64,000 nt of DNA from an uncultured Actinomycetota bacterium (GTDB taxonomy: Bacteria > Actinomycetota > Actinomycetes > Propionibacteriales > Nocardioidaceae): the NCBI GenBank assembly GCA_963782905.1, contig CAWALI010000006.1, forward strand, positions 33,268 through 97,267, read 5' to 3'. Position 1 is the first letter of the stretch, and each line of letters begins with the position of its first letter. Shown here piece after piece: positions 6,392-55,446 of this stretch. The notes under the pieces were generated by a model that saw only the letters and a list, made by a program, of their open reading frames with translations, made no database searches and was not told the origin of the DNA. The position numbers and the translations under genes are program-made.

Positions 6392-7965
6392 CCGGCACCG
6401 GCGTCCTGCTGCGTCACTTCCTGCGCCGCGATCGTTGGATGCTCCTGTGGTGGTCGGTCGGCACGATGCTGCTCTACTGGTCGCAGGCCGCCAGTGTGAA
6501 GGGGCTGTACGCGACGCAGGCCGAGTTCGACGCCGCCGCCGCCAGCATGGAGTCCAACGCGGCACTGATCTCCATGGCGGGACCGGCCCGGGCGCTGAAC
6601 ACCGTCGGGGGGCAGGTGTCGTGGCAGGCGACCGCCTTCGGTGCCATCGTCGTGGGGCTCATGTCGATGTTCCTCGTCGTGCGCCACACCCGCGCCGAGG
6701 AGGAGTCCGGCCGCGACGAGCTGCTCCGCGCTGCGGCCGTCGGCCGTGCCGCACCGACCCTGGCCGCCGTGCTCGTGGCCCTGGTGGCCAACGCGCTCGC
6801 CGGCGCGCTGGTCACCGCGAGCCTCGTCGCGGTGCCCCTGGCGGTGCCCGACTCGGTGGCCCTGGGCGCAGGGCTGGCCGCGACCGGGGCGGTGTTCACC
6901 GGGACGGCGCTGCTGGCGGCGCAGCTCACGAGCGGACCACGGGCGGCCTACGGACTGGCCGGAGCGGTCATCGCCGTGGCCTACGTGCTGCGTGCGATCG
7001 GCGACGTCGGCACTCCGGTGCTGACCTGGGTCTCACCGATCGGCTGGTACCAGGGGATGTACGCCTTCTCGGGCCTGCGCTGGTGGCCGTTGGCGATCCT
7101 CCTCGTCGCGGCGGCGGCAAGCCTCGTCGTGGCGCTGCTCGTCTTCGCCCGGCGTGACTTCGGCGCCGGGGTGCTCGCCGCCCGGCCGGGACCGGCGCGC
7201 GCAGCAGGGGCGCTCACCCGTGACGTCGGGCTCGCCACGCGCCTCCAGCGGGGCTCGGTCGTCGGTTGGACGGTCGGGATGTGGCTGATGGGGCTGGCCT
7301 ACGGGTCCATGGGGTCGGACGTCGGTGACCTGCTGGGCAACAGCGATGTCAGCCGCGAGATGTTCGTCCGAGGCAACGGAGGCATCGTCGACGGGTTCTA
7401 CGCCACGGCCATCGTGCTGCTGGCACTCATGGCGTGTGGCTTCGCCGTCAGCAGCGCGTTGCGGCCGCGCGGCGACGAGGTGGACGGCCGGGTCGAGACG
7501 CTGCTCGCCACCGGTCTGTCGAGGACACGGTGGCTCGTCGCCAACCTGGCGGTCACGGTGGTGGGATCCTTCCTCGTCGTGCTCGCCGCCGGACTCGGGC
7601 TCGGCACCGGCTACGCGCTGGTGGCCGGCGACTCCGCCGCCGTGCTCGACTACACGATGGCCACGCTGCCGTACGTCGCCCCGGTGCTGGCGACCGCCTC
7701 GGTGGCCTGCCTGCTGTTCGGACTGGCTCCTCGGCTCGCGGGCCTCGCCTGGCTGGTGCTCGGCTTCGCGGTGGTGGTGCTGATGTTCGGACAGCTCCTC
7801 GGTCTGCCCGACTGGCTCCAAGCCCTGTCGCCGTTCCACCACCTCGCCCTCGTGCCGGCCGAGGACTTCCGGTGGGCACCCTTCCTGGCCGTCGGCGCCG
7901 TGGCCGTCGCTCTCGGCGCGGCGGGCGTGCTCGGGTTCACCCGTCGGGACGTCGAGGTCCGCTAG
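6388..7965 (+). CDS. ABC-2 family transporter permease
   Basis: GTG start overlaps the ATPase stop (GTGA). Hydrophobic multi-TM protein. Confidence 0.7.
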
Positions 7966-7975
7966 CCTCCGAGGC

Positions 7976-8878
7976 ATGTGGCAGCCCGAGCCCGGTTGGC
8001 AGCGTCTCCCGGGAGCCGGCCCGTCCACGTTCGGGGTGTGGTCCGCCGTCGAGGACGGCCGCGAGGTGGTGGTCAAGCGGCTCGTCGCACCGGAGCCGCC
8101 CGACCCGCCCGGCCTGCGCGACCCACGGGACGCCAACTACTGGCGCCGGGCCGCCGATGTGGCGCTGTCGGGCGTGGTACGCCGCACGCCCGGGCTGCGG
8201 GGGGCGGGCGTCGTACGCGTCGAGGAGGACGACGACGGCGTGACGGTCGTCCACGAGCGGGTGGCGGGCGAGGCCCCCGGCGCGCTCTTCATCGCGCGCG
8301 CACTCGGCCGCTTCGCGGGCGCCGACCTGGGTGGCGAGCCGTGGCTGGCCACCGGGCAGCTGCGCACCCGGCTGGGCCTGGTCGAGCGGCGCGGAGGCTG
8401 GCGGACCCTGGCGCGGACCCCGACCGCCGACATCGCCGAGCACCTGTGGACCCGTCGCGAGATGTGGCTGTCGCGCTGCGACGCGCTGCCGCACGTCGCC
8501 CAGCACGGGGACCCGGTGGCGGCCAACGTGCCGGTCCGCGACGGGGACGACGCGGTCGCCATCGACTGGTCGCACCTGGGCACCGGGCCGGTCGGCGCCG
8601 ACCTGGGCTACCTGTCGCTGTCCTCGCGCGAGGAGTTCGAGCCGTTGCTCGACGCCTATCTCGACGGCCTGCCCGCGGGGCTCGCGACCCGGGAGCAGGC
8701 CGAGCTCGGCGCTCGGGTGACGGCCGTCTACACCGCCCTCACCCGCGTCGACTGGGCGCTGGGCCGCGTGGCCGACGGGGAGGGCGCGCTGGCCGGCAAG
8801 TTCCGCCACCCGTCCGTCGCGCCGTACATCATCGCCATGCAGCGGCAGGTGACCCAGATCGAGGCCCTGATCGGCTGA
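7976..8878 (+). CDS. Phosphotransferase-family (APH/choline-kinase-like) protein
   Basis: Kinase-like motifs HGDPVAANV and IDWSHLGTGPVGADLGYL (Brenner/DxD region). Confidence 0.55.
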   Translation: MWQPEPGWQRLPGAGPSTFGVWSAVEDGREVVVKRLVAPEPPDPPGLRDPRDANYWRRAADVALSGVVRRTPGLRGAGVVRVEEDDDGVTVVHERVAGEAPGALFIARALGRFAGADLGGEPWLATGQLRTRLGLVERRGGWRTLARTPTADIAEHLWTRREMWLSRCDALPHVAQHGDPVAANVPVRDGDDAVAIDWSHLGTGPVGADLGYLSLSSREEFEPLLDAYLDGLPAGLATREQAELGARVTAVYTALTRVDWALGRVADGEGALAGKFRHPSVAPYIIAMQRQVTQIEALIG

Positions 8879-17377: not shown

Positions 17378-18103
17378 ATGAGTGACGACACCCGCCCCGC
17401 GTCCCGATCCGTCCTGGTGACGGGCGGCAACCGTGGCATCGGCCGCGCCATCGCCGAGGCCTTCCTCGCCCAGGGCGACAAGGTCGCCGTGACCACCCGC
17501 AGCGGCGGAGCCCCCGACGGGGCGCTGGACGTCCGCTGCGACATCACCGACCCCGACGCCGTCGAGGCGGCGTTCACGACCGTCGAGGAGGCCCACGGGC
17601 CCGTGGAGGTGCTGGTCGCCAACGCCGGGATCACCGCCGACACGCTCGTGCTCCGCATGTCGGAGGAGCAGTGGTCGAGCGTCATCGACACCAACCTCAC
17701 CGGCTCCTTCCGGCTGGCCAAGCGCGCCGCCAAGGGCATGCTGCGGCAGCGTCGCGGACGCATCATCTTCATCTCCTCGGTGGTCGGACTGCTGGGCTCG
17801 GCCGGCCAGGTCAACTACGCCGCCTCCAAGGCGGGCCTGGTGGGCATGGCCCGCTCGCTGGCCCGGGAGCTGGGGTCGCGCTCGATCACCGCCAACGTGG
17901 TGTCGCCCGGCTTCGTGGAGACCGACATGACCGACGTGCTCACCGACGAGCAGAAGCAGATGATCAAGGCGCAGGTCCCGCTGGGGCGCTACGCCGCCAC
18001 GGCCGAGGTCGCCTCGGCCGTGACCTGGTTGGCGTCGGACGGCGCCGCCTACGTGACTGGAGCCGTCATTCCTGTTGACGGCGGACTCGGAATGGGGCAC
18101 TGA
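17378..18103 (+). CDS. fabG: 3-oxoacyl-ACP reductase (FabG/MabA-like)
   Basis: TGGNRGIGRAIA plus the catalytic NYAASKAG motif. Confidence 0.85.
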   Translation: MSDDTRPASRSVLVTGGNRGIGRAIAEAFLAQGDKVAVTTRSGGAPDGALDVRCDITDPDAVEAAFTTVEEAHGPVEVLVANAGITADTLVLRMSEEQWSSVIDTNLTGSFRLAKRAAKGMLRQRRGRIIFISSVVGLLGSAGQVNYAASKAGLVGMARSLARELGSRSITANVVSPGFVETDMTDVLTDEQKQMIKAQVPLGRYAATAEVASAVTWLASDGAAYVTGAVIPVDGGLGMGH

Positions 18104-18105
18104 CA

Positions 18106-18875
18106 TGGGACTTCTCGACGGCAAGCGGATCCTGGTGGCCGGAGTGACGATGGACTCCTCCATCGGCTTCGCCACCGCCAAGGTGGCGCAGGAGCAGGGC
18201 GCCACGGTGCTGATCTCCAACTTCGGGCGGGCGCTGGGCATCACCAAGCGCATCGCCAAGCGGCTCCCGGTCGAGCCGCCGGTGCTCGAGCTCGACGTGA
18301 CCGACGAGGAGCACCTCGCCGGGCTCGCCGACCAGGTGCGGGAGCACGTGGACGGCCTCGACGGCGTCGTGCACTCGATCGCCTACGGCAACCCGGAGAC
18401 CCTGCTGGGTGGCAAGTTCATGGAGGGCCCGTGGGAGGACGTCGCGCAGGCCGTGCAGGTCTCGGCGTACTCGCTCAAGTCCCTCGCGGTGGCCACCCGC
18501 CCGCTGATGTCGCGCGGCGGCTCCATCGTGGGCCTGACGTTCGACGCGACGTCGGCCTGGCCGGCGTACGACTGGATGGGCGTCGCCAAGGCGGCGCTGG
18601 AGAACACGTCGCGGTACGTCGCGCGCGACCTCGGTCCCGAGGGCATCCGCTGCAACCTCGTCTCGGCGGGGCCGCTCAAGACGCTCGCGGCCAAGGCGAT
18701 CCCCGGCTTCGAGGCCCTCGAGTCGTCGTGGAAGGACCGCGCCCCGCTCGGGTGGGACGAGACCGACCAGGTCCCGACCGCGCAGGCCGTGTGCGCGCTG
18801 CTGAGCGACTTCTTCCCCGCGACGACCGGCGAGATCGTGCACGTCGACGGCGGCTTCCACGCGATGGGGCTGTGA
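18106..18875 (+). CDS. fabI: Enoyl-ACP reductase (FabI/InhA-like)
   Basis: MGLLDGKRILVAGV...SIAYG...WMGVAKAALE...; adjacent to fabG as in the mabA-inhA arrangement. Confidence 0.85.
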
Positions 18876-18901: not shown

Positions 18902-20599
18902 GTGACCTCTCTCGTCGAGCTCCGGGTCCTGGAGGGCCCCAACCTCTACTTCCCGCGCGCCGCCATCAAGCTGACCCTCGACGTCACGACGATCGCGGAG
19001 GCGTCGGAGGAGACGGCGCTGCGCTTCGCGCGCCGGATCGGGCTGCGCAGCACCCGGCCGGGCGCGCCGGGGAGCGGCTTTCGCCAGCGGTTCGCGATGC
19101 GGGCGGTGGAGCGGTTGGTGCGGGCGATCGCGGCGGAGTCGGGTACGACGCGGCTCGCGGTGCGGGTGCGCCCGACCAGCGACCCCGACCGCCTCGTCGT
19201 CGCCTATCCGTGGCGGCACCGGGGCCGGGCCGAGTCCCTGGGTCGGGCCGTGGCCGATGCCCTCGACGCGCTGCCGACCCCGGACCTCGAGGCCGCGGTC
19301 AGCGCGGCCGCGGCATCGGTGGCGGCCGCCGAGCCCGGTGACGGGCCGACGACGCTGACCCCGCGCGTCCCCGTCGTCGCGGTGACCGGCACCAACGGCA
19401 AGACCACCACGAGCCGGATGATCGCGCACATCGCACGGGCCCACGGGCTGCTCACCGGCTGGTCCAACACCGACGGCATCTACATCGACGGCGAGCTCGT
19501 CGAGGCGGGGGACTACTCCGGTCCCAGCGGCGCCGGCCGGGTGCTGGCCCACCCGCAGGTCCAGCTGGCCGTCACCGAGACCGCCCGGGGCGGGATCCTG
19601 CTCAAGGGCATCGGGCTGCGCCACAACGACGTGTCGGTGGTCACCAACGTCACCGCCGACCACCTCGGCCTCCAGGGGATCGACACCGTCGACCAGCTGG
19701 CCGAGGTGAAGTCCGTCGTCCCGCAGATCACCCGCAAGGACGGCTGGGCGGTCCTCAACGCCGACGACCCGCGGGTGCTGGCCATGCGCGCGGTCACGAA
19801 GGCGAAGCCGTGGATCTTCTCCCGCGACCCCGACTCCCCGGCGATCCGCGAGGTCGTCGGCCACGGCGGCCGGGCGACCACCGTCATCGACGGCTGGGTC
19901 ACGGTCCTGCGTCCCGGGGCGGATCCCGAGCCGCTGGTCGAGCTGGTCGACGTACCCATGACGCTCGCCGGGCTCTCGCGCTTCAACGTGGAGAACACCC
20001 TCGCTGCCACCTCGGCGGCCCTGGCGGTCGGCCTGCCCGCATCGGCGGTGGTCGAGGGGCTGCGGTCGTTCCTGCCCGACGCCGAGCACAACCCCGGGCG
20101 GATGAACTTCTTCACCCTGCCCGTCGACGGCGACGGCCTCTCGGTGGTCATGGACCTCGCCCACAACGAGGCCGGGCTGGAGGCCCTGCTGGAGATCATG
20201 GGCGGCGTACGACGCCCCGGCGCCCGGCTCCTCCTCGGCCTCGGCGCGGTGGGGGACCGGACCGACGAGCTCATCGACACCCTGGGTGAGATCGGCGCCA
20301 AGGGCAGCGACGTGGTGGCGATCGGCCACAAGGAGCACTACCTCCGCGGTCGCACGATTGACGAGATCGACACCCTGCTGCGCGCCGGAGCCGCTCGCGT
20401 CGGGGTCGAGGACATCGAGACCCACGACACCGAGGTCGCCTGCCTGGCCGCGCTGGTGGCGCAGGCACGACCCGGCGACGTCGTCGGGCTCATGTGCCAC
20501 GCCGAGCGCCAGGAGGCCTACGACTGGATCGCGGCTCACGGCGGTACGCCGGACTCGCCCGAGGTCCTGGCCGCGAAGGTGCGCGCAGCGTCGGTGTGA
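18902..20599 (+). CDS. Cyanophycin-synthetase-like protein with CphA N-domain and Mur-ligase (M) domain but no ATP-grasp domain
   Basis: N-term ELRVLEGPNLYFPRAAIKL resembles the CphA N domain; VAVTGTNGKTTTSRMIAHI is the Mur-ligase P-loop. Paralogous to the 923-aa cphA at 23147..25918 but only 565 aa. Confidence 0.65.
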   Translation: MTSLVELRVLEGPNLYFPRAAIKLTLDVTTIAEASEETALRFARRIGLRSTRPGAPGSGFRQRFAMRAVERLVRAIAAESGTTRLAVRVRPTSDPDRLVVAYPWRHRGRAESLGRAVADALDALPTPDLEAAVSAAAASVAAAEPGDGPTTLTPRVPVVAVTGTNGKTTTSRMIAHIARAHGLLTGWSNTDGIYIDGELVEAGDYSGPSGAGRVLAHPQVQLAVTETARGGILLKGIGLRHNDVSVVTNVTADHLGLQGIDTVDQLAEVKSVVPQITRKDGWAVLNADDPRVLAMRAVTKAKPWIFSRDPDSPAIREVVGHGGRATTVIDGWVTVLRPGADPEPLVELVDVPMTLAGLSRFNVENTLAATSAALAVGLPASAVVEGLRSFLPDAEHNPGRMNFFTLPVDGDGLSVVMDLAHNEAGLEALLEIMGGVRRPGARLLLGLGAVGDRTDELIDTLGEIGAKGSDVVAIGHKEHYLRGRTIDEIDTLLRAGAARVGVEDIETHDTEVACLAALVAQARPGDVVGLMCHAERQEAYDWIAAHGGTPDSPEVLAAKVRAASV

Positions 20600-20607
20600 G
20601 CGGGAGG

Positions 20608-20732
20608 GGCCCGGCGGTCCCGTCGCGGGGGCTGCCCGGCGCGTCCCATGGCGGGAGCGGCCCGGCGCGTCCGTCGCGGAAGTGCCGGGCGTGTCCCGTC
20701 GCGGGACGTGCCCGGCGCGTCCCATGGCGGAG
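20608..20732. repeat. Degenerate tandem repeat, about 5 copies of a ~25-bp GC-rich unit (GCCCGGCGCGTCCCATGGCGG-like)
   Basis: Read directly from the sequence; lies between the cphA-like gene and the HNH pseudogene. Confidence 0.6.
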
Positions 20733-20891
20733 CTGGGTAGCGGTGCAGAGCCGAGGCGCAACGTTGCGGGGCCGCTGGGTGACCGGGACCTGCCGGCGCG
20801 CACCAGCTCGGTGGCCCCTCGTCGGCGTGACTGATCAGGACGTGCCTGTGCCCCCGCCGGTGTCACCGAGGCGGGGTGCGGGGCGTGGTGG

Positions 20892-22396
20892 TCACTGGTC
20901 CGGCGGGTTAGCGCCCAGGTGGGCGCGGGCGGCGCGGGCGTCGGGCACCTCGATCAGGCTGGGGCCGTGCTGGCGCTCGCCGTCGTCGGGCCAGGCGCGT
21001 CCGGTGGCGGTGCTGCCGGTGTGGTCACGCCGGTAGGTGTGTCCCAGCGGGCTGGTCCAGAGGTAGACGCCCGGGCTGGTCATCTCGTAGCGCCATCGGC
21101 CGTGGGTCTTGAGCCGGTGGTGCAGCCGACACAACGCGGCAAGGTTGTCGGTCGAGGTCGGGTCCGCCGTCCTCGGGGTGGTCGTGGTCGTAGGCGACGA
21201 TGTGGTCGAGGTCGCAGTGGCGGGCGTTGCGACCACACCACGGGAACACACACGTCCCGTCCCGGACGATCACGTGCTCACGGATCTTCTCGGTCGGCTT
21301 GTAGCCCTGGCACTCGAGGCGCTCACGCAGGTCGATGACCTGCTTCACCACCACCTGGGCGTCGGGGCGTCCGCACCAGGCCCGGATCTGCTCCACCGAC
21401 AGCACCCGCTGGCCGGCCTGCTCGACCCGCGCACACAGCGCCTCGCCGGTGGGGTTGTCGAACTCGGTGATGGCGTCGGCGGACAGGTGGGCGTAGAGCA
21501 CCACCTGGGTCACCGGAGCCACCGCAGCGACCGGAGCGCCGGCAGCGCCGGACGGTGTCGAGACGGGCCCCTGCGGGCCCTGCGCAACCGGCGAGGAGCC
21601 GGCCGGGTTGGCGGCACCGTCGGCCACTTGGGACGTCGTCGTCGTCGAAGCCGATGGTGAGCTGGTGCCGGGCGAGGTCCCCCAGGGCGGTGGCCCGGCG
21701 GCCGTCGACGGTGTCGGTGGAGCCGAGCCGGGCGAGGTGCTCGGCACCCGACGTGACCGCCGCGGCCAGGGCGAGGGCGTCGGGGATCTCCAGGCTCGCC
21801 TCGAGGCCCATGGTGCCGTCGTAGGAGGCCTGCTGGGTGTCGAAGGTGACGTGCCGCTTGTCCGCGGACTTCTCCAGCGCGTCGGCCACGGCCTCGGGCA
21901 TGAACCGGACCCGGGCCTCCTGCACCAGCCGGTCCAACGCCGACGGCGTCAGCTTGGAGGCGCACCAGAACACCTGCTCGTCCACGTACGACGCGGCCTG
22001 CAGGGACAGGTCGATGGTGGTGTCCGCGATCAGCCGGGCCCGCCACCCCGCCACCAGGCCGGCCTGGACGGCACCCCACAGCTGCGGGAGGCGGTAGGCG
22101 ACCTCGACGCACTCGGTGAGGAACCGGCCCGCACTGTCGTTGGTGCGTCCCAGCATGGTCGCGAACTCGGGCACGCAGAACTCGTCGATCATCGGTGACC
22201 CCTCGCCGGCGAACGTCTTGGGTGAGGTGAAGCAGGCTTCCGCGAACTCGGGGTCCGCGAGGTGCAGGTCGGCCCAGTGCACCCCGAGGCGCATCATCTC
22301 GACGTCGGCCCGATCGGCCGCCTTCTTCTGATCCCGCACCGCACGCAGCAGCGCGGCCGGGGTCTCCGGCAGCGCGGGTGCGGTGGTCTTGGCCAT
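20892..22396 (-). pseudogene. DUF222 + HNH endonuclease (REP13E12-family) gene, split over three frames by at least 2 frameshifts
   Basis: N-terminal part (ORF 21323..22396) interpreted as DUF222. HNH core GTCVFPWCGRNARHCDLDHIVAYD is in ORF 21025..21747, and the C-terminus LCRLHHRLKTHGRW is in ORF 20892..21251. Confidence 0.7.
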
Positions 22397-22509
22397 GACC
22401 CCATTCCAGCAGGGACCACCGACATCGCAGCCTCAGAATCGACGGTTCCGACCGGCATGTGGACACCACTTTCGACGGGTTTCCCGAGCGGTCGGGCCGG
22501 GCTTCGAGA

Positions 22510-22775
22510 CGTGCCTGACGGCCCTCCTCCACCGGCGGTGACCGACGCGGGGACGTGGTGTCGAGACGGCGCTGACGCGCCTTCCTCGATCGGCGGTGAC
22601 CGACGCGGCACGTGGTCCAGCGACGGCGCTGACGCGCTCTCCTCGATCGGCGGCGACCGACTCGACGCGTACTTCAGCGCCGGCGCTGACGCGCCTTCCT
22701 CCACCAGCGGCGACCGATGCCGCGCGTACTTCAGCGACGGCGCTGACGCGCCTCCTCGACCAGCGATCGAGCGGC
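22510..22775. repeat. Tandem repeat, about 4.6 copies of a 57-bp unit (GGCGCTGACGCGCCTTCCTCGATCGGCGGTGACCGACGCGGCACGTGGTCCAGCGAC)
   Basis: Read directly from the sequence; no convincing coding potential. Confidence 0.7.
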
Positions 22776-22779
22776 CCAG

Positions 22780-23146
22780 TCAGGTGTCGCCGGGGTCGAC
22801 CTGCTCGCCGGGGGCGCCGATGTCGAGGTCACCCTCGACGATCACGGCGGTCATGCCCCATGGGGGACCGGGTCTCGTGCAGCTCGCCGGGCTCCCAGAC
22901 CGCGGCGGAGCCGGCCGTGAGGCGGCGTACGGCACCCTCCGCGCCGGCGACCTCGGCCTCGCCCGAGAGGACGATGAGCAGCTGACGCCCACCGGCCGGG
23001 TGGCGACCGATGACGCCGCCGGGGACGAGGGAGACAGCCACGAGGTGGGCGTCCGCGCTGATGCCGAACGCGCCCACCGAGAAGCCGCGGCTCCCGTGCG
23101 CCTCGACCGGCCGGTGGGGCAGGTCGGTGAGCGAGAGGATCCGCAC
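22780..23146 (-). CDS. Cupin-domain protein immediately downstream of cphA; one frameshift near 22850
   Basis: MRILSLTDLP...GGVIGRHPAGGRQLLIVLSGEAEV...WEPGELHE, then continues in another frame as WGMTAVIVEGDLDIGA. Confidence 0.5.
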
Positions 23147-25918
23147 TCAGGACTCCGTCGGCGCGGTGTAGTCGGGGTCGGCGGCCGGGGTGTCCGACGA
23201 GGCGCCGGCACCGGCCTGGGCCTGGGAGGACCAGTTCTCCAGCTCGGTCATCACCTCGGCGTGCTTGTCCACGCAGACGACGACGAGGTCGCCCTTGTTG
23301 GCGCGGTTGAGCGCGTGGCGCACCGCGGAGATCTCGTCGAGCACCTCCTCGGCCTGCTTGCACCGGGAGCCCTCGGCCATGGCGTTGCGCACGCCCTCGA
23401 GGACCAGTCCGGCGACGTCACCGCGCTCGCGGCCGCGCAGGGCGACGTCCTCGCGCACGATGCAGACGTCGAAGTGCTGGGCGGCGATGTGGCCGAGCTC
23501 GCGCATGTCCTCGTCGCGACGGTCGCCGGCGGTGGCGATGATGCCGATCCGCGACGGCCGGGCCAGGTCGTGCGACGACTCCAGCGAGTCACCGACCCGG
23601 TCGACGAAGTCGCCCAGCATCTTCATGCCCGGCGCGTTGTGGCAGTAGTCGACGATGACGTTGACGCCGTTGACCTCGACCTCGTTGAGACGGCCGGGGG
23701 AGAGGTAGTAGTTCGTCGAGAAGCTGCGCAGGCCCTGCCGGATGTCGTGCAGGGGGGCACCGGCGGCGAACGCCGCGGCGGCCGCGGCCAGCGCGTTCTG
23801 GACGTTCATCCGGGCCTTGCCGCCGAAGGTCGCGGGCAGCAGGTGGGTCCAGGCCAGCTGCATCTCCCGGCGTCCGTGGCGTACGACGATCATCTCGCCG
23901 CGCTCGGACGGGTCGAGGACCAGCGCCTTGCCGCCCCGGCGGCAGTGCGCGTCGATCATGTCGCGGGCGTCCGAGCCCGGCTCCTCCATGGAGAACCACA
24001 CGACCTGGCCCGAGCACCGCCGGCGCATCTCGCGCACCAGCGGGTCGTCGGCGTTGAGGACCGCGTGGCCGTCGCGGGGGACGGCCTCGACGATGACCGC
24101 CTTGACATCGGCGAGCTGCTCGACGGTGTCGATGCCGCGCAGGCCGAGGTGGTCGGGCTGCACGTTGAGCACGACGGCCACGTCGTTGCGCTCGTAGCCG
24201 AGGCCCTCACGCAGGATGCCACCGCGGGCCACCTCGAAGACGGCCGTGTCGACGCGCGGGTTCTGCAGCACCATCCGGGCCGAGCGGGGACCGCTGGCGT
24301 CGGCGCGGATGACGAGTCGCTCGTCGATGACGACCCCGTCGGTGGAGGTCATGCCGACCTTGCGGCCCATCCCCTTGAAGATGTGGCTGATCATCCGGCT
24401 GGTGGTGGTCTTCCCGTTGGTGCCGGTGACGGCGATGATCGGGATCCGCGACGTGGCGCCGGGCGGGAAGAGCATGTCGACGACCGGCTTGGCGATGAAC
24501 TGCGGCTCGCCGATGGTCGGATGGGTGTGCATCCGGAAGCCGGGAGCGGCGTTGACCTCGCAGATCGCGCCGCCGGCCTCACGGACCGGCTCGGTGATGT
24601 CGGGGCAGATGAAGTCGATGCCGGCGATGTCGAGGCCGACCATCCGGGCGGCCTCCTCGGCGATCTCGACGTTCTCCGGGTGGGCCTCGAAGGTGCGGTC
24701 GATCGAGATGCCGCCCGTGGACATGTTGCCGGTGAGTGCGAGCCTGACCATCTCGCCCTCGGCCGGCACGGACTCCAGGGAGTGGCCCTGGCCGGCCAGC
24801 ACCTCGAGCGCCGCGGCGTCGACCTTGATCCGGGTGAGGACCTTCTCGTGGCCGACCCCGCGACGGGGGTCGGCGTTGGTCAGGTCGACGAGCTGCTCGA
24901 CGGTCGACGTGCCGTCACCGGTCACCGACGCGGGCACCCGCTCGGCGATCGCGACCATCCGCCCGTCGATGATCAGGCAGCGGTAGTCCTTGCCGGTCAC
25001 CATCGTCTCCACGATCACGACGCCGCGCCGCGACTGCTCGCGGGCGATCTGGAAGGCACCGCGGACGTCGTCCTCCGACCGCAGGTCCAGGCAGACACCG
25101 CGGCCGTGGTTGCCGTCGAGCGGCTTGACGACGACGGGGTAGCCGATGCGGCGGGCCGCAGCCACCGCGGCGTCGGCGGAGCGCACCGACTCCTGCTTGG
25201 GCACCGGCAGGCCTGCCGCGCCGAGGAGCTTGGTGGTGAGGTCCTTGTCGGAGGCGATGTCCACGGCGATCGAGCTGGTCTCGCTGGTCATCGTGGCCCG
25301 GATGCGCTTGGCGTGCACGCCCTGTCCGAGCTGGACCAGGGAGTACTGGTTGAGCCGGATCCACGGGATGTCGCGCGAGACGGCCTCGTCCACGATGGCC
25401 TGCGTCGAGGGACCGAAGGCGGTCCGCTCCGCACGGCGGATGAAGGCGTCGCGCTCGGTCTCCCAGTCGAAGTCCGGGTCGCCCTGGACGAGGTGGTTGA
25501 CGAGTCGTACGGCGAGCTTGCCGGCCTCGAGGCCGACCTGCTCGTCGATGTACCCGTAGATGATGTTGTAGTGGCCCTTGTGGCCCTTGACCGAGCGGGT
25601 CTTGCCGCGCCGGATGTCGTGCCCGACGACCTGCTGCAGCGACAGCGCGACGTGCTCGGCGACGTGGCCCAGCCAGGTGCCCTCCTGCAGCCGCTCGAGG
25701 AAGCCGCCGCGGCGACCTCGCGAGCAGGAGTGCTCCCGCAGCCCCGGCAGCATCGCGACCAGCTCGTCGGAGAAGCCGGGCAGGGTGTTGGTGGGGAACT
25801 CCTCCAGCGAGCCGAGGTCGACGACCAGGTGCACCGACTTGTCGTACGACCAGACGTTGGCCCCGCGGTAGACGCGGGTCTCGAGGATCGTGAGGTCGGG
25901 CGTGGGGCGCTCGCTCAT
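23147..25918 (-). CDS. cphA: Cyanophycin synthetase CphA (N domain + ATP-grasp + Mur-ligase domain), 923 aa, intact
   Basis: ATP-grasp region (KPLDGNHGRGV) and M domain (IIAVTGTNGKTTTSRMISHI); start codon overlaps the cphB stop. Confidence 0.9.
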   Translation of the reverse strand: MSERPTPDLTILETRVYRGANVWSYDKSVHLVVDLGSLEEFPTNTLPGFSDELVAMLPGLREHSCSRGRRGGFLERLQEGTWLGHVAEHVALSLQQVVGHDIRRGKTRSVKGHKGHYNIIYGYIDEQVGLEAGKLAVRLVNHLVQGDPDFDWETERDAFIRRAERTAFGPSTQAIVDEAVSRDIPWIRLNQYSLVQLGQGVHAKRIRATMTSETSSIAVDIASDKDLTTKLLGAAGLPVPKQESVRSADAAVAAARRIGYPVVVKPLDGNHGRGVCLDLRSEDDVRGAFQIAREQSRRGVVIVETMVTGKDYRCLIIDGRMVAIAERVPASVTGDGTSTVEQLVDLTNADPRRGVGHEKVLTRIKVDAAALEVLAGQGHSLESVPAEGEMVRLALTGNMSTGGISIDRTFEAHPENVEIAEEAARMVGLDIAGIDFICPDITEPVREAGGAICEVNAAPGFRMHTHPTIGEPQFIAKPVVDMLFPPGATSRIPIIAVTGTNGKTTTSRMISHIFKGMGRKVGMTSTDGVVIDERLVIRADASGPRSARMVLQNPRVDTAVFEVARGGILREGLGYERNDVAVVLNVQPDHLGLRGIDTVEQLADVKAVIVEAVPRDGHAVLNADDPLVREMRRRCSGQVVWFSMEEPGSDARDMIDAHCRRGGKALVLDPSERGEMIVVRHGRREMQLAWTHLLPATFGGKARMNVQNALAAAAAAFAAGAPLHDIRQGLRSFSTNYYLSPGRLNEVEVNGVNVIVDYCHNAPGMKMLGDFVDRVGDSLESSHDLARPSRIGIIATAGDRRDEDMRELGHIAAQHFDVCIVREDVALRGRERGDVAGLVLEGVRNAMAEGSRCKQAEEVLDEISAVRHALNRANKGDLVVVCVDKHAEVMTELENWSSQAQAGAGASSDTPAADPDYTAPTES

Positions 25919-26943
25919 GCAGGGTCTCCGTCCGGAGCAGGGGTGGGGGTGGGGGCAGCGACAGGGGGAGTCACGGGGGCGGTGGCCGGAGCGGTGGGCT
26001 CGGTCACCCGGCGGGCGCGGGCCAGCCGTCGGCGCAGGTTGGTGGGGGAGATGTCGCCGGCGGCGATGTCACGGGCGAGCTTGCGCAGGTCGCGGCCGGC
26101 CTCGGCGATCTCCTCCGCCTCGCTGTCGTCGATGACCGGCTCGCGGGGCACCAGCGCGCGCGCCGTCAGGTCGTACGCCGACCCGGCGGGCAGCACGTGG
26201 AGGGTCACGCCACTGGCCAGCAACGGCGCCGACTGACGGGCCTCGTGGGCGTTGGACACCATCCTGGCCGGGTCGAGGATCGTCACGGCGCCCCTGCCGG
26301 CGACGCGCAGCACCTCGTGGCCGTCGATGACGTCCACGATGGCGGCGGTGTCCTCGTCGACGCCGATGCCGAGCAGCTGCGGGCTCTGAGCCACGATCAT
26401 CAGCAGCCGGCCGTAGCGGTTGCGCTGGTCGAAGTGCTGGTCGATGACGGTCGAGCCGACGAGGCCGAGGCCGGCGGCGACCTGCGTCATCCGCTGCTTG
26501 GGCGTCGCGCCGCCCGACCCGAAGGCCACCATGTGCGAGGACTGGATGCTGGCGCCGGCCGACGTACCGGCGACCACGGCTCCCCGCTCGTGGGCGGCGA
26601 CGATCGCGTCGCCGAACGGCGTGCCGCAGACGACGCCGGACAGCTTGAGCTGGTTGCCACCGGTCATGAAGATCCCGGTGGCGTCGTCGATGGCCGCGAC
26701 CAGCGCGGCGTCGTGGGCGTCCTCGCGGCTCTCGGGACGGGCGGCGCGGACCTGCCCGGCGCCCAGCTTGGTGAAGAGCGCCTCGTAGACCTCGACGATC
26801 TCGGGGCCGAGCGAGGAGGCGGTCGGGATGACGACGATGCGGGCGTCGTGGCCGCCGCTGGCGACCACGAACTCCGTGAGGATGGTGCGCCTGCGCAGCT
26901 TGTCCTCGGCGCCGCCGATGATCATGAGGGGTCCTGAGGGCAT
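25915..26943 (-). CDS. cphB: Cyanophycinase CphB (peptidase S51)
   Basis: LMIIGGAEDK...GTSAGASI (Ser nucleophile)...VIDQHF; ATG start at 26941-26943. Confidence 0.85.
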   Translation of the reverse strand: MPSGPLMIIGGAEDKLRRRTILTEFVVASGGHDARIVVIPTASSLGPEIVEVYEALFTKLGAGQVRAARPESREDAHDAALVAAIDDATGIFMTGGNQLKLSGVVCGTPFGDAIVAAHERGAVVAGTSAGASIQSSHMVAFGSGGATPKQRMTQVAAGLGLVGSTVIDQHFDQRNRYGRLLMIVAQSPQLLGIGVDEDTAAIVDVIDGHEVLRVAGRGAVTILDPARMVSNAHEARQSAPLLASGVTLHVLPAGSAYDLTARALVPREPVIDDSEAEEIAEAGRDLRKLARDIAAGDISPTNLRRRLARARRVTEPTAPATAPVTPPVAAPTPTPAPDGDPA

Positions 26944-26970
26944 GACAGGCAGGCTATCGGCTGGGACAGT

Positions 26971-27528
26971 GTGCCCGTGCACGAGACGCCAGCCACCCAG
27001 ACGACGCCAGCCCGCAGGCTGGTGGTCATGCGCCACTCCAGGGCCGAGTCGTGGGGCGAGTCCGACCAGGGCCGCCCCCTCGAGCCGCGTGGGCGCGACG
27101 ACGCCGCGGCGGCCGGACGGTGGTTCGCGGCGCAGGGCTTCGTGCCCGACCACGCGCTGGTGTCGACCGCCAGCCGCACCCGGGAGACCTGGGAGGCGGT
27201 CGCGGCCGCCGCCGGCTGGGAGCTCGAGCCGGACTTCGACACCGGCCTCTACGCCGCCGGCCCCGAGGCCGCCCTCGACCTCATCCGCGAGGTGCCGGCA
27301 GGCGCCACCGACGTGATCGTCGTCGGCCACAACCCGACGATGGCCTACCTGGCCCAGCTGCTCGACGACGGCGGCGGAGACCCCGAGGCGGGTGCCGCGA
27401 TGGTCGGCGGCTTCCCGACGTCGGCCGTCACGGTCCTGGAGTACGACGGCGCCTGGGTCGACCTGGACATGGCCTCCGCCTCGGTGGTCGCCTTCCACGT
27501 CGGTCGGGCCGAGGTGAGTGGGGGCTGA
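26971..27528 (+). CDS. sixA: Histidine-phosphatase superfamily protein (SixA-like phosphohistidine phosphatase)
   Basis: RHSRAE catalytic motif, VVGHNP. Confidence 0.65.
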   Translation: MPVHETPATQTTPARRLVVMRHSRAESWGESDQGRPLEPRGRDDAAAAGRWFAAQGFVPDHALVSTASRTRETWEAVAAAAGWELEPDFDTGLYAAGPEAALDLIREVPAGATDVIVVGHNPTMAYLAQLLDDGGGDPEAGAAMVGGFPTSAVTVLEYDGAWVDLDMASASVVAFHVGRAEVSGG

Positions 27529-52811: not shown

Positions 52812-55244
52812 TCACAGCGCCCGGGTGCGCACCATCCGCAGCACCTCTTCGGAGCGTTCGGTGAGCGCACCGACCACCACGGGCGCGGCCCGGGCGGCCG
52901 CCACCTCGCGGGCGTGCCCCACCCACGCCTCGTCGATCGCGAACACCGGGAAGAGACTGAAGGTGAGGGCCAGGCCGGGGATCATCCCGCCCTCGTGCAG
53001 GGCGGGCAGCGCCTCGATGTAGCGCTCGGCGTACGGAGCCAGCACCTCGTCCTGGCCGGGCCGCCAGAAGGCTGCCCCCACGGTGCTCGCGGTCTGGATG
53101 GGCACGGCGCGCTCCACCAGCGCGGTCCACGCCTCCTCCTTCGCCTCGGCGGAGGATGCGCTCGCCCGCACGCAGAGCGCACGGACCCAGGCGTCGGGGT
53201 CGGGGTCCCGCTCCTGCAGGGCCTGCACGGCATGGGTGTCCACGTCGCCGAGCTCGGCCCGGCGCTGCAGGACGAACCACTGCAGGTCCAGGTCGTCGCC
53301 GGCCCGTTCACGCAGCGAGGCGAGGTCCTCCTCGCCCGCCGCCGTCCGGGCCAGCGTGCGCAGCGCCGAGTGCCGCGACACCCCTGCGTCCACCAGGTGA
53401 CGGGCCGCGGCGGCCACCTGCGCCTCCAGGCCGACCCGCTCCGACTCGGGCGCCCACTGCTGGGCGGCGCCGAGGGCGAGCGCGAGGCACGGCTCGGCGA
53501 CCGTCTCCACGGTCTCCACCGACAGCACGTCGGTGAACGCGCCCACAGCCTCGGCGGCTGTCGCCTCCGCGCTGGACAGCATGTCCCACACGGTGGCCAT
53601 CGCCACGGCGCGGGCCAGGGTCGTGGGCAGGCCCGAGGGGTGGCCGATGAGTATCTCGCGCCCGGCGACGTCAGGTCGGGTCGTGGCGAACGTGGTGTCG
53701 TCGTGGTTCACCAGGTAGAGGTCGGCCTGGGGCAGACCCTCGACGGCGGTGCGCTCGCCCTCCACCTCCACGCGGGCGGAGCCCACCTCCTCGAGCGCCT
53801 CGCCGGCGCGGCGGTAGGCGCCCACGCCCACCACCTGCGGGTGCGGGGCACCGTGTGCGCCGACGGCGGTGAGCACCAGGCCGTCGTCGGTGTGATCGAT
53901 GCCCAGGCGGTCGACGCCGGCTGTCTCCAGCCACGCGGTGCGCCACGGCTGGAGGTCGCGGCCGCTGGCCCGCTCCAAGGAGCGGACGAGGTCGTCGAGG
54001 GTCGTGTTGCCCCAGGCGTGCTCGGCGAAGTAGGCGCTCATGCCCACGCAGAACGTGTCCTCACCCACGAAGTGCATGAGCTGCTTGAGGACCGCCGCGC
54101 CCTTGGGATAGGTGATGGAGTCGAAGATCGACTCGGCGTCGGCCACGGTGGGCACGGATTGGCGGATGGGGTGCGAGCTGGGCCCCTGGTCGGCGAGGTA
54201 GGCGTTCAGCTTGTCGCCCACCAGGTTGTTGGCGGCCGTGTCGCCGTACGCGGTGGCCCGCTCGGCCGCCCACATGCAGGCGAACTCGGCGAAGGCCTCG
54301 TTGAGCCAGAGGTCGTCCCACCAGCGCATGGTGACGATGTTGCCGAACCACATGTGCGCCATCTCGTGCAGCAGCACGTTGGTGAACAGCTGCCACTCGC
54401 CGGTGGTGGGCTCGTGGCGGCGCAGGACGCTGTCGGCCCAGGTGACGCAGCCGTAGTTCTCCATCGCCCCGCCGAACTCGGCCAGGAACACCTGGTCGTA
54501 CGAGCGCTGCGGGAACGGCATGCCGAAGCGCTCGCCGAAGAAGGCGAGGCCCTGGGCCGTGAGCGTGAACAGCTGCTCGGCGTCGCGCTCCAGCGCCGAG
54601 GCCAGGGTCCGCCGGGCGTAGAGGCCGAGGTCGTACCCGCCGGCCTCCTGGCGCACCTCCACGAACGGGCCCGCCACCACCACAGGGTTGTAGGTGGAGA
54701 GCGGCGGCGTGGGCTCGAACGTCCACCGACGCCCGCCCTCGACGTCCTCGATGAGCGGGTCGCCGGAGTTGCTCACCACGGTCCACGCCGCCGGCGCGGT
54801 GACCGTGAACGCGTGAGGTGCCTTGAGGTCGGGCTGGTCGAAGCAGGCCCAGGCGTAGCGCGCCTCGTCGGGCTCGAAGCTGGTCCACACGTAGACGTTG
54901 TCGTCGCCGGGGTCGACGGCACGGTGCACCCCCCGTCCGTGGGTGGTGTCCCGCTGCATCGTGGCCACCACCAGCTCGTTGTCCTCGGCGAGGTCGGCCA
55001 GCGCGATCCGTCCTTCGACCGCTGCGGGCAACGGCTCGCCGTTGAGCCTGGCCGACTCCACCTCGGCGCAGCAGTCGACGAACGTCGACGCCCCGGCGGT
55101 GCCCGTGAAGCGCACCGTGCTGACGGCCCGGAAGCCGGGACCGTCGAGCATCTGGGCGAGGTCGATGTCGATGTCGTAGGAGGTGACCGACAGCAGCGCC
55201 GCACGCTCGACGGCCTCCTCCTGTCGAAGACTGCGGACGGGCAC
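52812..55244 (-). CDS. pepN: Aminopeptidase N (M1 family)
   Basis: GAMEN exopeptidase motif (GGAMENYG) and HEMAHMWFGN...LWLNEAFA zinc motif. GTG start at 55244 chosen by alignment to typical PepN N-termini. Confidence 0.85.
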   Translation of the reverse strand: MPVRSLRQEEAVERAALLSVTSYDIDIDLAQMLDGPGFRAVSTVRFTGTAGASTFVDCCAEVESARLNGEPLPAAVEGRIALADLAEDNELVVATMQRDTTHGRGVHRAVDPGDDNVYVWTSFEPDEARYAWACFDQPDLKAPHAFTVTAPAAWTVVSNSGDPLIEDVEGGRRWTFEPTPPLSTYNPVVVAGPFVEVRQEAGGYDLGLYARRTLASALERDAEQLFTLTAQGLAFFGERFGMPFPQRSYDQVFLAEFGGAMENYGCVTWADSVLRRHEPTTGEWQLFTNVLLHEMAHMWFGNIVTMRWWDDLWLNEAFAEFACMWAAERATAYGDTAANNLVGDKLNAYLADQGPSSHPIRQSVPTVADAESIFDSITYPKGAAVLKQLMHFVGEDTFCVGMSAYFAEHAWGNTTLDDLVRSLERASGRDLQPWRTAWLETAGVDRLGIDHTDDGLVLTAVGAHGAPHPQVVGVGAYRRAGEALEEVGSARVEVEGERTAVEGLPQADLYLVNHDDTTFATTRPDVAGREILIGHPSGLPTTLARAVAMATVWDMLSSAEATAAEAVGAFTDVLSVETVETVAEPCLALALGAAQQWAPESERVGLEAQVAAAARHLVDAGVSRHSALRTLARTAAGEEDLASLRERAGDDLDLQWFVLQRRAELGDVDTHAVQALQERDPDPDAWVRALCVRASASSAEAKEEAWTALVERAVPIQTASTVGAAFWRPGQDEVLAPYAERYIEALPALHEGGMIPGLALTFSLFPVFAIDEAWVGHAREVAAARAAPVVVGALTERSEEVLRMVRTRAL

Positions 55245-55446
55245 AGGCGTGGTCCTCACTCGAGGTCGGGTGCTGCGGACGGCGCCCGAGGTGAGCGACG
55301 TACGCAGCCTAGGGCCCGGTGCACGCCGGAGCGAGGGCTCACCGGTGGCACGGAGGCACGGAGGTCGGAGCCGCAGTAGCCTCACAGGCGTGACAGTCTC
55401 GCGACGAGGAATGCCAGAGCGAGCCGTCGAATCGGGAGGCGCCAGG

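Follow-up and report, generated by a model that had tools for sequence, protein, structure and literature searches.

What can a member of the cyanophycin synthetase family contribute to its host when the domain that extends the polymer backbone is missing? Cyanophycin biosynthesis is currently framed with two enzymes, CphA1, which consists of N, G and M domains, and CphA2, which has N and G domains followed by a vestigial M. The question is raised by a 64,000-nucleotide stretch of contig CAWALI010000006.1 from an uncultured member of the Nocardioidaceae (hereafter the window), in which one gene codes for a 565-aa protein made up of a CphA-like N-terminal region and an M domain, without G. We call this product the N+M protein, and the coordinates of its gene, its parts and its neighbours are collected in Table 1. 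The reading that we favour, with somewhat better than even confidence, is that of a stand-alone CphA-type M-domain ligase, with the N domain packed as in CphA1, which acts as a trans-acting side-chain ligase in cyanophycin metabolism.

A CphA-family protein without the G domain

The gene starts with a GTG codon, and its GC content at third codon positions (GC3) is 0.95, as in real genes of the window (72% GC). The window derives from a Nocardioides genome, and the closest named relatives of the gene product come from Nocardioides sp. Soil805 (96% identity) and Soil777 (95%). Residues 6-17 of the protein read ELRVLEGPNLYF and residues 159-177, around the P-loop, read VAVTGTNGKTTTSRMIAHI. Among curated families the best match was TIGR02068, the NCBIfam model of cyanophycin synthetase (378 bits, E = 6.5e-113), and this match spanned only positions 476-849 of the 862 in the model. 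The equivalog cut-off of TIGR02068 (850 bits) was missed by the N+M protein, as it was by the other N+M clades described below.

No ATP-grasp Pfam match to the N+M protein was found. Moreover, a hidden Markov model (HMM) of the CphA G domain, run against the six-frame translation of the window, matched only the cphA ORF (open reading frame) and an unrelated carboxylase, and left the N+M ORF unmatched. The P-loop glycine of the N+M protein, Gly163, follows directly on the N domain, whereas its equivalent in the local CphA is Gly499. Because the P-loop stands at 163 rather than 499 and both searches for ATP-grasp were negative, the G (ATP-grasp) domain is absent from this protein, which therefore belongs to neither CphA1 nor CphA2 as these are defined.

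An AlphaFold2 model of the whole protein had a mean predicted local distance difference test (pLDDT) score of 95.1 and a predicted template modelling (pTM) score of 0.92. CphA1 chains were its best matches in the PDB, with template modelling (TM) scores of 0.80-0.83 normalised to the query, and the structural alignment covered N and M from the N terminus on, G being represented by a gap. MurE entries reached TM scores of 0.52-0.55 at most. Since M makes up 73% of the query, scores of 0.80-0.83 go beyond what M alone would give, and hence the N domain superposes too, in a CphA1-like position on M. The preliminary description of the window had proposed a CphA paralogue consisting of N and M only, adjoining a canonical cphA-cphB pair; domain, profile and structure evidence bear out the first point, and profile scores above the cut-offs (Table 1) bear out the second.

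Labour is divided in CphA1: G extends the chain end by an Asp, to whose side chain M attaches Arg (PMC9262961). By analogy with this division of labour, the N+M protein presumably cannot make cyanophycin alone.

A divergent N domain that has lost its peptidase site

Pfam PF18921, the CphA N domain, was unmatched by the whole protein and by residues 1-157, even at E <= 10, and BLASTP of the N region against the N domain of the local CphA gave a weak but collinear match (E = 2.8). When 20 N domains of CphA were combined into an HMM, it matched the N+M protein with 19.7 bits (E = 2e-6 in a set of 68 sequences), and it matched closer relatives over the full domain (P0125, E = 5e-10; P0150, E = 1e-10). 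In the profile-profile comparison with hhalign, residues 2-147 of the N+M protein were aligned to residues 9-170 of CphA over 146 columns, with 98.3% probability and an E value of 2.5e-14. When residues 1-150 were modelled alone (pLDDT 96.4), the PDB matches at ranks 1-14 were all CphA1 or CphA2 (TM 0.52-0.63), and the lower ranks were noise. Since the CphA-N HMM, the profile-profile comparison and the structure models agree, the N region is a CphA-type N domain, albeit divergent, as supposed in the preliminary description, which would have been refuted by a generic Mur-ligase or CapB-type protein with an N region that failed to align.

The active site of this domain has not been preserved. 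The HxxEH zinc-peptidase motif of the CphA1 N domain is replaced by R67-A-V-E70-R71 (RAVER), and the Cys region of Cx19HxxEH is deleted. When SuCphA1 numbering was mapped onto the N+M protein, none of the residues H57, C59, S60, R70, H79, E82, H83, E90 and Y110 turned out to be conserved in the N+M family. In SuCphA1 these residues form the cryptic endo-cyanophycinase and the polymer groove, and they make CphA1 independent of a primer (PMC9262961). The N-terminal G-P-N turn is the sole N-domain feature that is invariant in both the CphA1 and the N+M families. Because the peptidase motif and the groove residues are lost and only this turn is invariant, the N domain persists as a fold that packs on M and no longer as an enzyme.

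The M domain keeps the ligase machinery

Both Mur-ligase Pfam domains exceeded their cut-offs, Mur_ligase_M with 66.7 bits and Mur_ligase_C with 40.7 bits. Against residues 485-911 of the local CphA the M part shows 39% identity, and the solved CphA1 7lg5 gave 247 bits against the N+M protein. The core carries the P-loop (G163-T169), T190, E226, R229, N249, D253-H254 and K270, and the lid carries R400, H421-N422, G451-D452-R453 and E511. In an M-domain alignment of 67 short proteins, six second genes from proteobacterial and myxobacterial loci (see below) and 20 CphA1s, all positions at least 85% conserved in CphA1 M domains were retained by the short family.

Conservation within the family is equally strict. 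In an alignment of 146 family sequences, K167, T168, T169, E226, R229, N249, D253, K270 and N365 of the core are invariant, likewise R400, D418, H421, N422, D452, R453, R482 and E511, and H254 is at least 90% conserved. These residues correspond to the ATP and Mg residues of TeCphA1, where K499, T500, T522, E558, R731 and H748 are the P-loop Lys/Thr, the Mg ligands and the ATP-contacting Arg/His of the lid (PMC9427784), and to the D585/H586 pair of SuCphA1, mutation of which kills the M domain (PMC9262961). The catalytic residues whose loss would have refuted the preliminary description are thus present and conserved across the family. Because the ATP, Mg and catalytic residues of M are invariant family-wide, the N+M protein is not a decaying paralogue, and it is most likely a catalytically competent M-type ligase.

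The preliminary description had also considered an inactive or regulatory paralogue, and a non-catalytic partner of this kind would be a regulatory or scaffolding subunit that binds CphA1 or cyanophycin. CphA2 does show that domains of the CphA family can persist without catalysis (PMC10273328), and the active site of the N domain is dead in the N+M protein. However, the P-loop Lys, the Mg ligands, the DH pair, the Arg/His of the lid and the GDR are conserved in 146 sequences from several phyla, and whereas the dead M of CphA2 is truncated, that of the N+M protein is full length and has its lid. With the catalytic residues so strictly conserved across phyla, we regard a non-catalytic role as very improbable.

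A lid segment that may select a different amine donor

The lid departs from that of CphA1 in two places. At the position following the invariant G-D-R, 65% of CphA1s have an Arg, whereas Thr, Ser or Pro stands there in the N+M clades (T454 here). Ahead of the invariant R-G-R, CphA1 reads K-E-D-x-D-L-R-G-R and the N+M clades read x-(H/E)-(K/T/L)-x-x-Y-L-R-G-R. In the MAFFT alignment this segment coincides with D414-N-P-R417 of E. coli MurE; the Arg of the MurE motif falls on R482, and its Asp aligns with the conserved Asp of CphA1. This DNPR-equivalent Asp of CphA1 is gone in every N+M clade, where K, T or L/M is found instead (Lys477 here), and a conserved Tyr is inserted in the segment (Y480 here).

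The DNPR motif of MurE touches the amino acid that is to be added, at its distal group, and in the Lys-adding MurE of S. aureus the motif Asp and a downstream Glu bind the epsilon-amino group (PMC3829189). When this motif is used as a proxy for the Arg-contacting residues of CphA1, the amine donor of the N+M enzymes may differ from arginine, because the DNPR-equivalent Asp has been lost in every clade and a conserved Tyr has been gained.

A widespread branch of the CphA family

The initial homology search and the A1 profile search returned almost only Nocardioides, and the diversity of the family came only from the representative library and a profile of distant members. When 1.84 billion cluster representatives were searched exhaustively, 8949 matches were obtained, and among the best 150 of these, 67 representatives have an N region of 120-260 aa followed by a full M domain. 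Full-length N+M orthologues, 520-600 aa long, number in the hundreds. The protein studied here carries the signature of the family, i.e. a length of about 520-600 aa, an N domain that begins with the invariant E-x-R-x-L-x-G-P-N and leads straight into M, and the Y-L-R-G-R lid motif, with HxxEH absent.

M domains were compared in a neighbour-joining (NJ) tree, which was midpoint-rooted, distance-based and without support values, and which served no other purpose than to tell the deep N+M clades from short proteins that derive sporadically from CphA1. Three deep clades lie apart from CphA1: an actinobacterial clade that holds this protein, a Chloroflexota clade and a proteobacterial/myxobacterial clade. 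Scattered short proteins (P0194, P0196, P0190, P0270 and others) are nested within CphA1 clades, and they look like sporadic recent deletions of G or fragmentary gene calls. In five such nested proteins of about 600 aa (P0190, P0194, P0196, P0256 and P0270), which are distinct from the deep N+M family, M is preceded by an N domain of near-canonical CphA1 type (160-200 bits).

Nested proteins such as P0194, P0196, P0190 and P0270, with their near-canonical N domains, lend some weight to the suspicion that the present gene is itself an artefact, i.e. a pseudogene or a cphA that is truncated, fragmentary or mis-assembled. Against this, its clade is deep and distinct from CphA1 and contains the full-length orthologues mentioned above, its GC3 is of the coding type, and its model is confident and compact. 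An artefact therefore has a negligible chance of being the explanation.

The N+M proteins form a distinct, widespread and apparently uncharacterised branch of the CphA family. No NCBIfam model dedicated to any N+M clade and no solved structure for the family was found. A description of the N+M protein was not found in the cyanophycin synthetase literature either (subscription-only literature lay outside the search), and a bioinformatics survey (PMC10206079) does not mention it. The remark in the preliminary description that this architecture was uncharacterised as far as known is in agreement with these searches. In a Mur-ligase phylogeny (bioRxiv 10.1101/2022.11.30.518518), a 'MurE' of Francisella noatunensis and a 'MurF' of the Solemya velum symbiont group with CphA, and these two could be further G-less CphA-like ligases.

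Linkage with cphA1 and cphB across phyla

Whether orthologues occur together with cphA and cphB was followed through gene neighbourhoods. A scan of species-representative genomes gave 80 loci, 14 of which were matched over the full N+M length, and five loci were added by exact-protein look-up. cphA1/cphB adjoin the N+M gene in 19 of the 24 informative loci, which come from Actinomycetota, Chloroflexota, Gammaproteobacteria and Myxococcota.

The arrangement of these genes varies. In Kribbella, Terrabacter, several metagenome-assembled genomes (MAGs) of Actinomycetota and three Chloroflexota loci, full cphA1 and cphB lie just downstream of the N+M gene in convergent orientation, and convergent gaps between the N+M gene and cphA are as small as 30-400 bp. 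Another Chloroflexota locus (L085, 8001-13306) has all three genes on one strand, N+M first, then cphB and then cphA; because the reading frame of its cphA is broken within the G domain, the gene caller gave a 594-aa 'RimK(faint)+Mur ligase' protein there. A second gene comes after cphB and cphA1 on the same strand in Luteimonas, Lysobacterales, Steroidobacteraceae, two further MAGs of Gammaproteobacteria and Plesiocystis, and in Luteimonas it begins 10 bp past the end of cphA. This second gene codes for a G-less protein with an M domain, and its N terminus matches the N profile of the family weakly.

Synteny of fabG, inhA and moaA with the N+M gene is confined to Actinomycetota, so cphA and cphB are the only neighbours conserved across phyla. 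For the same reason, fabG and inhA were rejected as functional partners.

In the partner CphA1s the P-loop and the E-x-ARGG, PGR, D-x-x-HN and GDRRD motifs are preserved, as is Cx19HxxEH in almost every one. Complementation of a defective partner CphA1 by the N+M gene was rejected, since the M and N motifs of the partners are intact, and the N+M protein is thus an addition to a complete CphA1, not a replacement for it. The same motifs bear on a role as primer or dipeptide synthetase, which would join Arg, or a relative of it, to Asp, either free or in very short Asp peptides, and so supply beta-Asp-Arg-type starters for CphA1. The first ligation steps of CphA1 are very slow (PMC9262961), the M chemistry of the N+M protein is complete, and its lost polymer-groove residues would be of less consequence for small substrates. 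However, nearly all partner CphA1s could provide primers through Cx19HxxEH and would have little need for such a supply, and an N domain in a CphA1-like position on M suggests an acceptor cleft of the polymer type. We consider primer synthesis quite unlikely.

Weighing the side-chain ligase reading

A trans-acting side-chain ligase is the simplest reading because the N domain is packed on a fully equipped M, the G domain is absent and the gene is kept beside cphA1/cphB. In such a mechanism, ATP would activate the beta-carboxyl of an aspartate on a cyanophycin-type chain; the acceptor could be, e.g., a chain end left bare after the G-domain step, or poly-Asp-like stretches. An amino acid would then be ligated to the activated carboxyl, in trans alongside CphA1, and the N domain would, as in CphA1, help to shape the cleft for the acceptor that lies between N and Mcore. 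The dedicated side-chain ligase that the preliminary description had suggested gains indirect support from the cross-phylum linkage with cphA/cphB together with the family-wide change in the lid.

Several points weigh against this reading. Acceptor and donor are derived only from homology and gene neighbourhood. The argument from the lid motif is a sequence alignment through an indel-rich segment, and E511, the equivalent of the Glu in the Lys-adding MurE, is conserved, so that the donor may be basic after all. In Actinomycetota the N+M gene lies tail-to-tail with cphA, outside the cphA operon, and is perhaps co-transcribed with fabG-inhA. Moreover, five of the 24 informative loci (L012 and L081-L084) have no cphAB within 8-10 kb, and in four of those, from Thermomicrobiales/Sphaerobacteraceae, a gene for an Rce1-like (CPBP) membrane protease stands immediately upstream.

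In three of these loci (L081, L082 and L083; about 7013-7978) the N+M gene begins 23-27 bp past the Rce1-like gene, and in L012 (2460-3386) the Rce1-like match ends about 100 bp upstream of it. Downstream of the N+M gene in L083 are an M14 carboxypeptidase and an oligopeptide ABC (ATP-binding cassette) transporter. The one further exception has neither cphAB nor an Rce1-like gene. The Rce1-like arrangement in Thermomicrobiales/Sphaerobacteraceae may reflect a functional shift.

This subgroup, with a conserved Rce1-like neighbour and no cphAB nearby, is the best supporting point for a different possibility, namely that the acceptor of the enzyme has nothing to do with cyanophycin and is, for instance, an envelope component or some other peptide with a carboxylate, and that proximity to cphAB reflects ancestry by duplication and not a common function. 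The carboxypeptidase and peptide transporter at one Rce1-linked locus, the position of the actinomycetotal gene after fabG-inhA on the same strand, and a lid motif unlike that of CphA1 point in the same direction. However, association with cphA/cphB across four phyla and in three arrangements (convergent, downstream of cphA1 and upstream of cphB) argues for selection, the fabG-inhA synteny is limited to one phylum, and the M residues conserved in CphA1 are almost all retained. An unrelated acceptor is in our view unlikely, and we continue to prefer a side-chain ligase of cyanophycin metabolism.

Comparison with known systems

With CphA1 (Synechocystis UTEX2470, 7LG5; Trichodesmium, 7WAE) the N+M protein shares the N fold, the M core and lid, the ATP, Mg and catalytic residues, the packing of N on M seen in the TM scores of the whole model, and a gene neighbourhood with cphB. 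In contrast to CphA1, it is without G and hence without backbone extension, it has lost Cx19HxxEH, the polymer-groove residues and the DNPR-equivalent Asp, and it has an extra Tyr in the lid. CphA2 (7TA5, 8FXH) is likewise a reduced CphA paralogue that coexists with CphA1, and its N domain is non-catalytic and diverged from that of CphA1. However, CphA2 keeps G as its sole active site and has an M that is truncated (about 150 residues long) and inactive (PMC10273328), whereas the N+M protein is its mirror image, dropping G and keeping a full-length, apparently active M. In addition, CphA2 is cyanobacterial, whereas members of the N+M family occur in Actinomycetota, Chloroflexota, Proteobacteria and Myxococcota.

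The Mur ligases, e.g. MurE of E. coli (1E8C) and M. tuberculosis (2WTZ), have in common with the N+M protein the Mur_ligase_M and Mur_ligase_C folds, the P-loop, the acyl-phosphate chemistry and, in MurE, an amino-acid-selecting lid motif with a conserved Arg (R482 here). Unlike them, the N+M protein has a CphA N domain in place of the UDP-binding N-terminal Mur domain, and its gene lies outside any cell-wall gene cluster. The best MurE model gave 93.5 bits (cut-off 476) against 378 for CphA, and the TM scores with MurE are those given above. It differs from the MurT/GatD amidotransferase system too: the MurT model gave 39 bits (cut-off 800), the C-terminal domain DUF1727 was unmatched, and fabG, inhA, an HNH-like pseudogene and a cupin gene adjoin it in place of a GatD glutaminase gene.

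The betaproteobacterial tandem cphA/cphA' (e.g. in Nitrosomonas europaea, L061) also places a second CphA-like gene beside cphA1, but both genes of the tandem have G, which the N+M gene has not. Two tandem G-bearing cphA-like genes were seen in L018, L040, L048, L052, L055, L061, L063, L064, L066, L077 and L080, which are betaproteobacterial and related loci. The M of the upstream copy is only about 26-33% identical to the queries; L018 is an exception, with two copies about equal (38-43%).

Gene neighbourhood in the window

Table 1. Features of the N+M gene and of its surroundings in the window
Feature	Position	Strand	Evidence
N+M gene (CphA-like ligase, 565 aa, G-less)	18902..20599	+	ORF, translation, domain matches, model
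Divergent CphA-type N domain (residues 1-146)	18902..19339	+	hhalign, N-only model, SuCphA1 residue mapping
M-domain core, Mur_ligase_M (residues 161-372)	19382..20017	+	Pfam, conservation vs CphA1
M-domain lid, Mur_ligase_C (residues 399-531)	20096..20494	+	Pfam, conservation
Lid segment H476-K477-E-H-Y480-L-R482-G-R484	20327..20353	+	Column profiles by clade, MAFFT with E. coli MurE
26-nt tandem array, 5.4 copies, consensus GCGGGAGCTGCCCGGCGCGTCCCGTC	20600..20735	+	Tandem Repeats Finder (TRF); starts at first base after N+M stop codon
HNH-endonuclease-like gene across three frames	20892..22396	-	ORF translations; stitched protein Pfam HNH 20 bits, just under cut-off
Small cupin gene, directly downstream of cphA	22829..23146	-	Pfam Cupin_2; GC3 0.90
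Canonical cphA1 (923 aa; N+G+M)	23147..25918	-	TIGR02068 1177 bits (cut-off 850); Pfam Cyanophycin_syn, ATP-grasp, Mur_ligase_M/C
cphB, cyanophycinase (maximal ORF)	25915..27498	-	TIGR02069 244 bits (cut-off 127), Peptidase_S51
fabG-like short-chain dehydrogenase/reductase (SDR)	17378-18103	+	Pfam
inhA/fabI-like enoyl reductase	18075-18875	+	Pfam

The local cphA1 has Cx19HxxEH and the M motifs intact, and its DH motif reads NVQPDHLG. In cphB, the conserved part comprises residues 191-441, and the N-terminal extension of about 190 aa has no cyanophycinase homology. Because the conserved part is limited to these residues, the true start of cphB probably lies near 26930. A strongly coding ORF on the plus strand (26971-27528; His_Phos_1, GC3 0.94) overlaps the 5' extension of cphB.

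The N+M gene and the cupin-cphA-cphB genes converge, and the stop codons of the N+M gene and cphA are 2.5 kb apart. The space between them is occupied by a hairpin array, an HNH-like pseudogene, a second tandem array and the cupin gene. The 26-nt array folds as one long hairpin (-105.7 kcal/mol, z -3.3) and may be a transcript end or an element like the repetitive extragenic palindromic (REP) sequences. The HNH-like gene contains the motifs CVFPWCGRNARHCDLDH and CRLHHRLKTHGRW, and it is probably an HNH-endonuclease pseudogene with frameshifts, placed between two genes which lie almost side by side in other taxa. A DUF222/HNH identity was considered for this pseudogene and not adopted: DUF222 was undetected, and HNH was found only below threshold and after frame stitching. 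The second array, a 57-nt tandem repeat of 4.7 copies with 82% matches, lies at 22502-22765 between the pseudogene and the cupin gene.

On the other side, inhA ends 26 bp before the N+M gene on the same strand, and the fabG-like, inhA-like and N+M genes may be co-transcribed. A stand-alone G-type ATP-grasp gene elsewhere in the window was also sought and rejected, the sole other ATP-grasp signal being that of a fused acyl-CoA carboxylase. This carboxylase (55180-60970, plus strand) has biotin-lipoyl, ACC_central and carboxyl transferase parts besides its ATP-grasp signal, and it spans two overlapping frames, 55180-57363 and 56702-60970, which may reflect a frameshift, a sequencing error or merely overlapping open frames.

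Implications

Beside CphA1 and CphA2, the N+M proteins represent a third, widespread architecture, which keeps the side-chain-adding half alone and is maintained beside cphA1/cphB. This maintenance implies that some step by which cyanophycin is made, finished or diversified has so far gone unrecognised, in a pathway to which structural studies have paid close attention. We suggest tentatively, as a possibility rather than an expectation, that N+M enzymes attach a residue other than Arg to aspartyl side chains, that a distinct and undescribed cyanophycin-like or mixed-side-chain polymer is made in four phyla by CphA1 together with a trans-acting side-chain ligase, and that the Rce1-linked Thermomicrobiales subgroup has adapted the same chemistry to another substrate. 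If the lid motif does signify a different donor, polymer biotechnology, which aims at cyanophycins with new side chains, would find natural tools in the N+M enzymes.

The family also bears on the origin of CphA. The N+M architecture could be a relic that predates insertion of the ATP-grasp domain between N and M, or it could have been derived by deletion of that domain.

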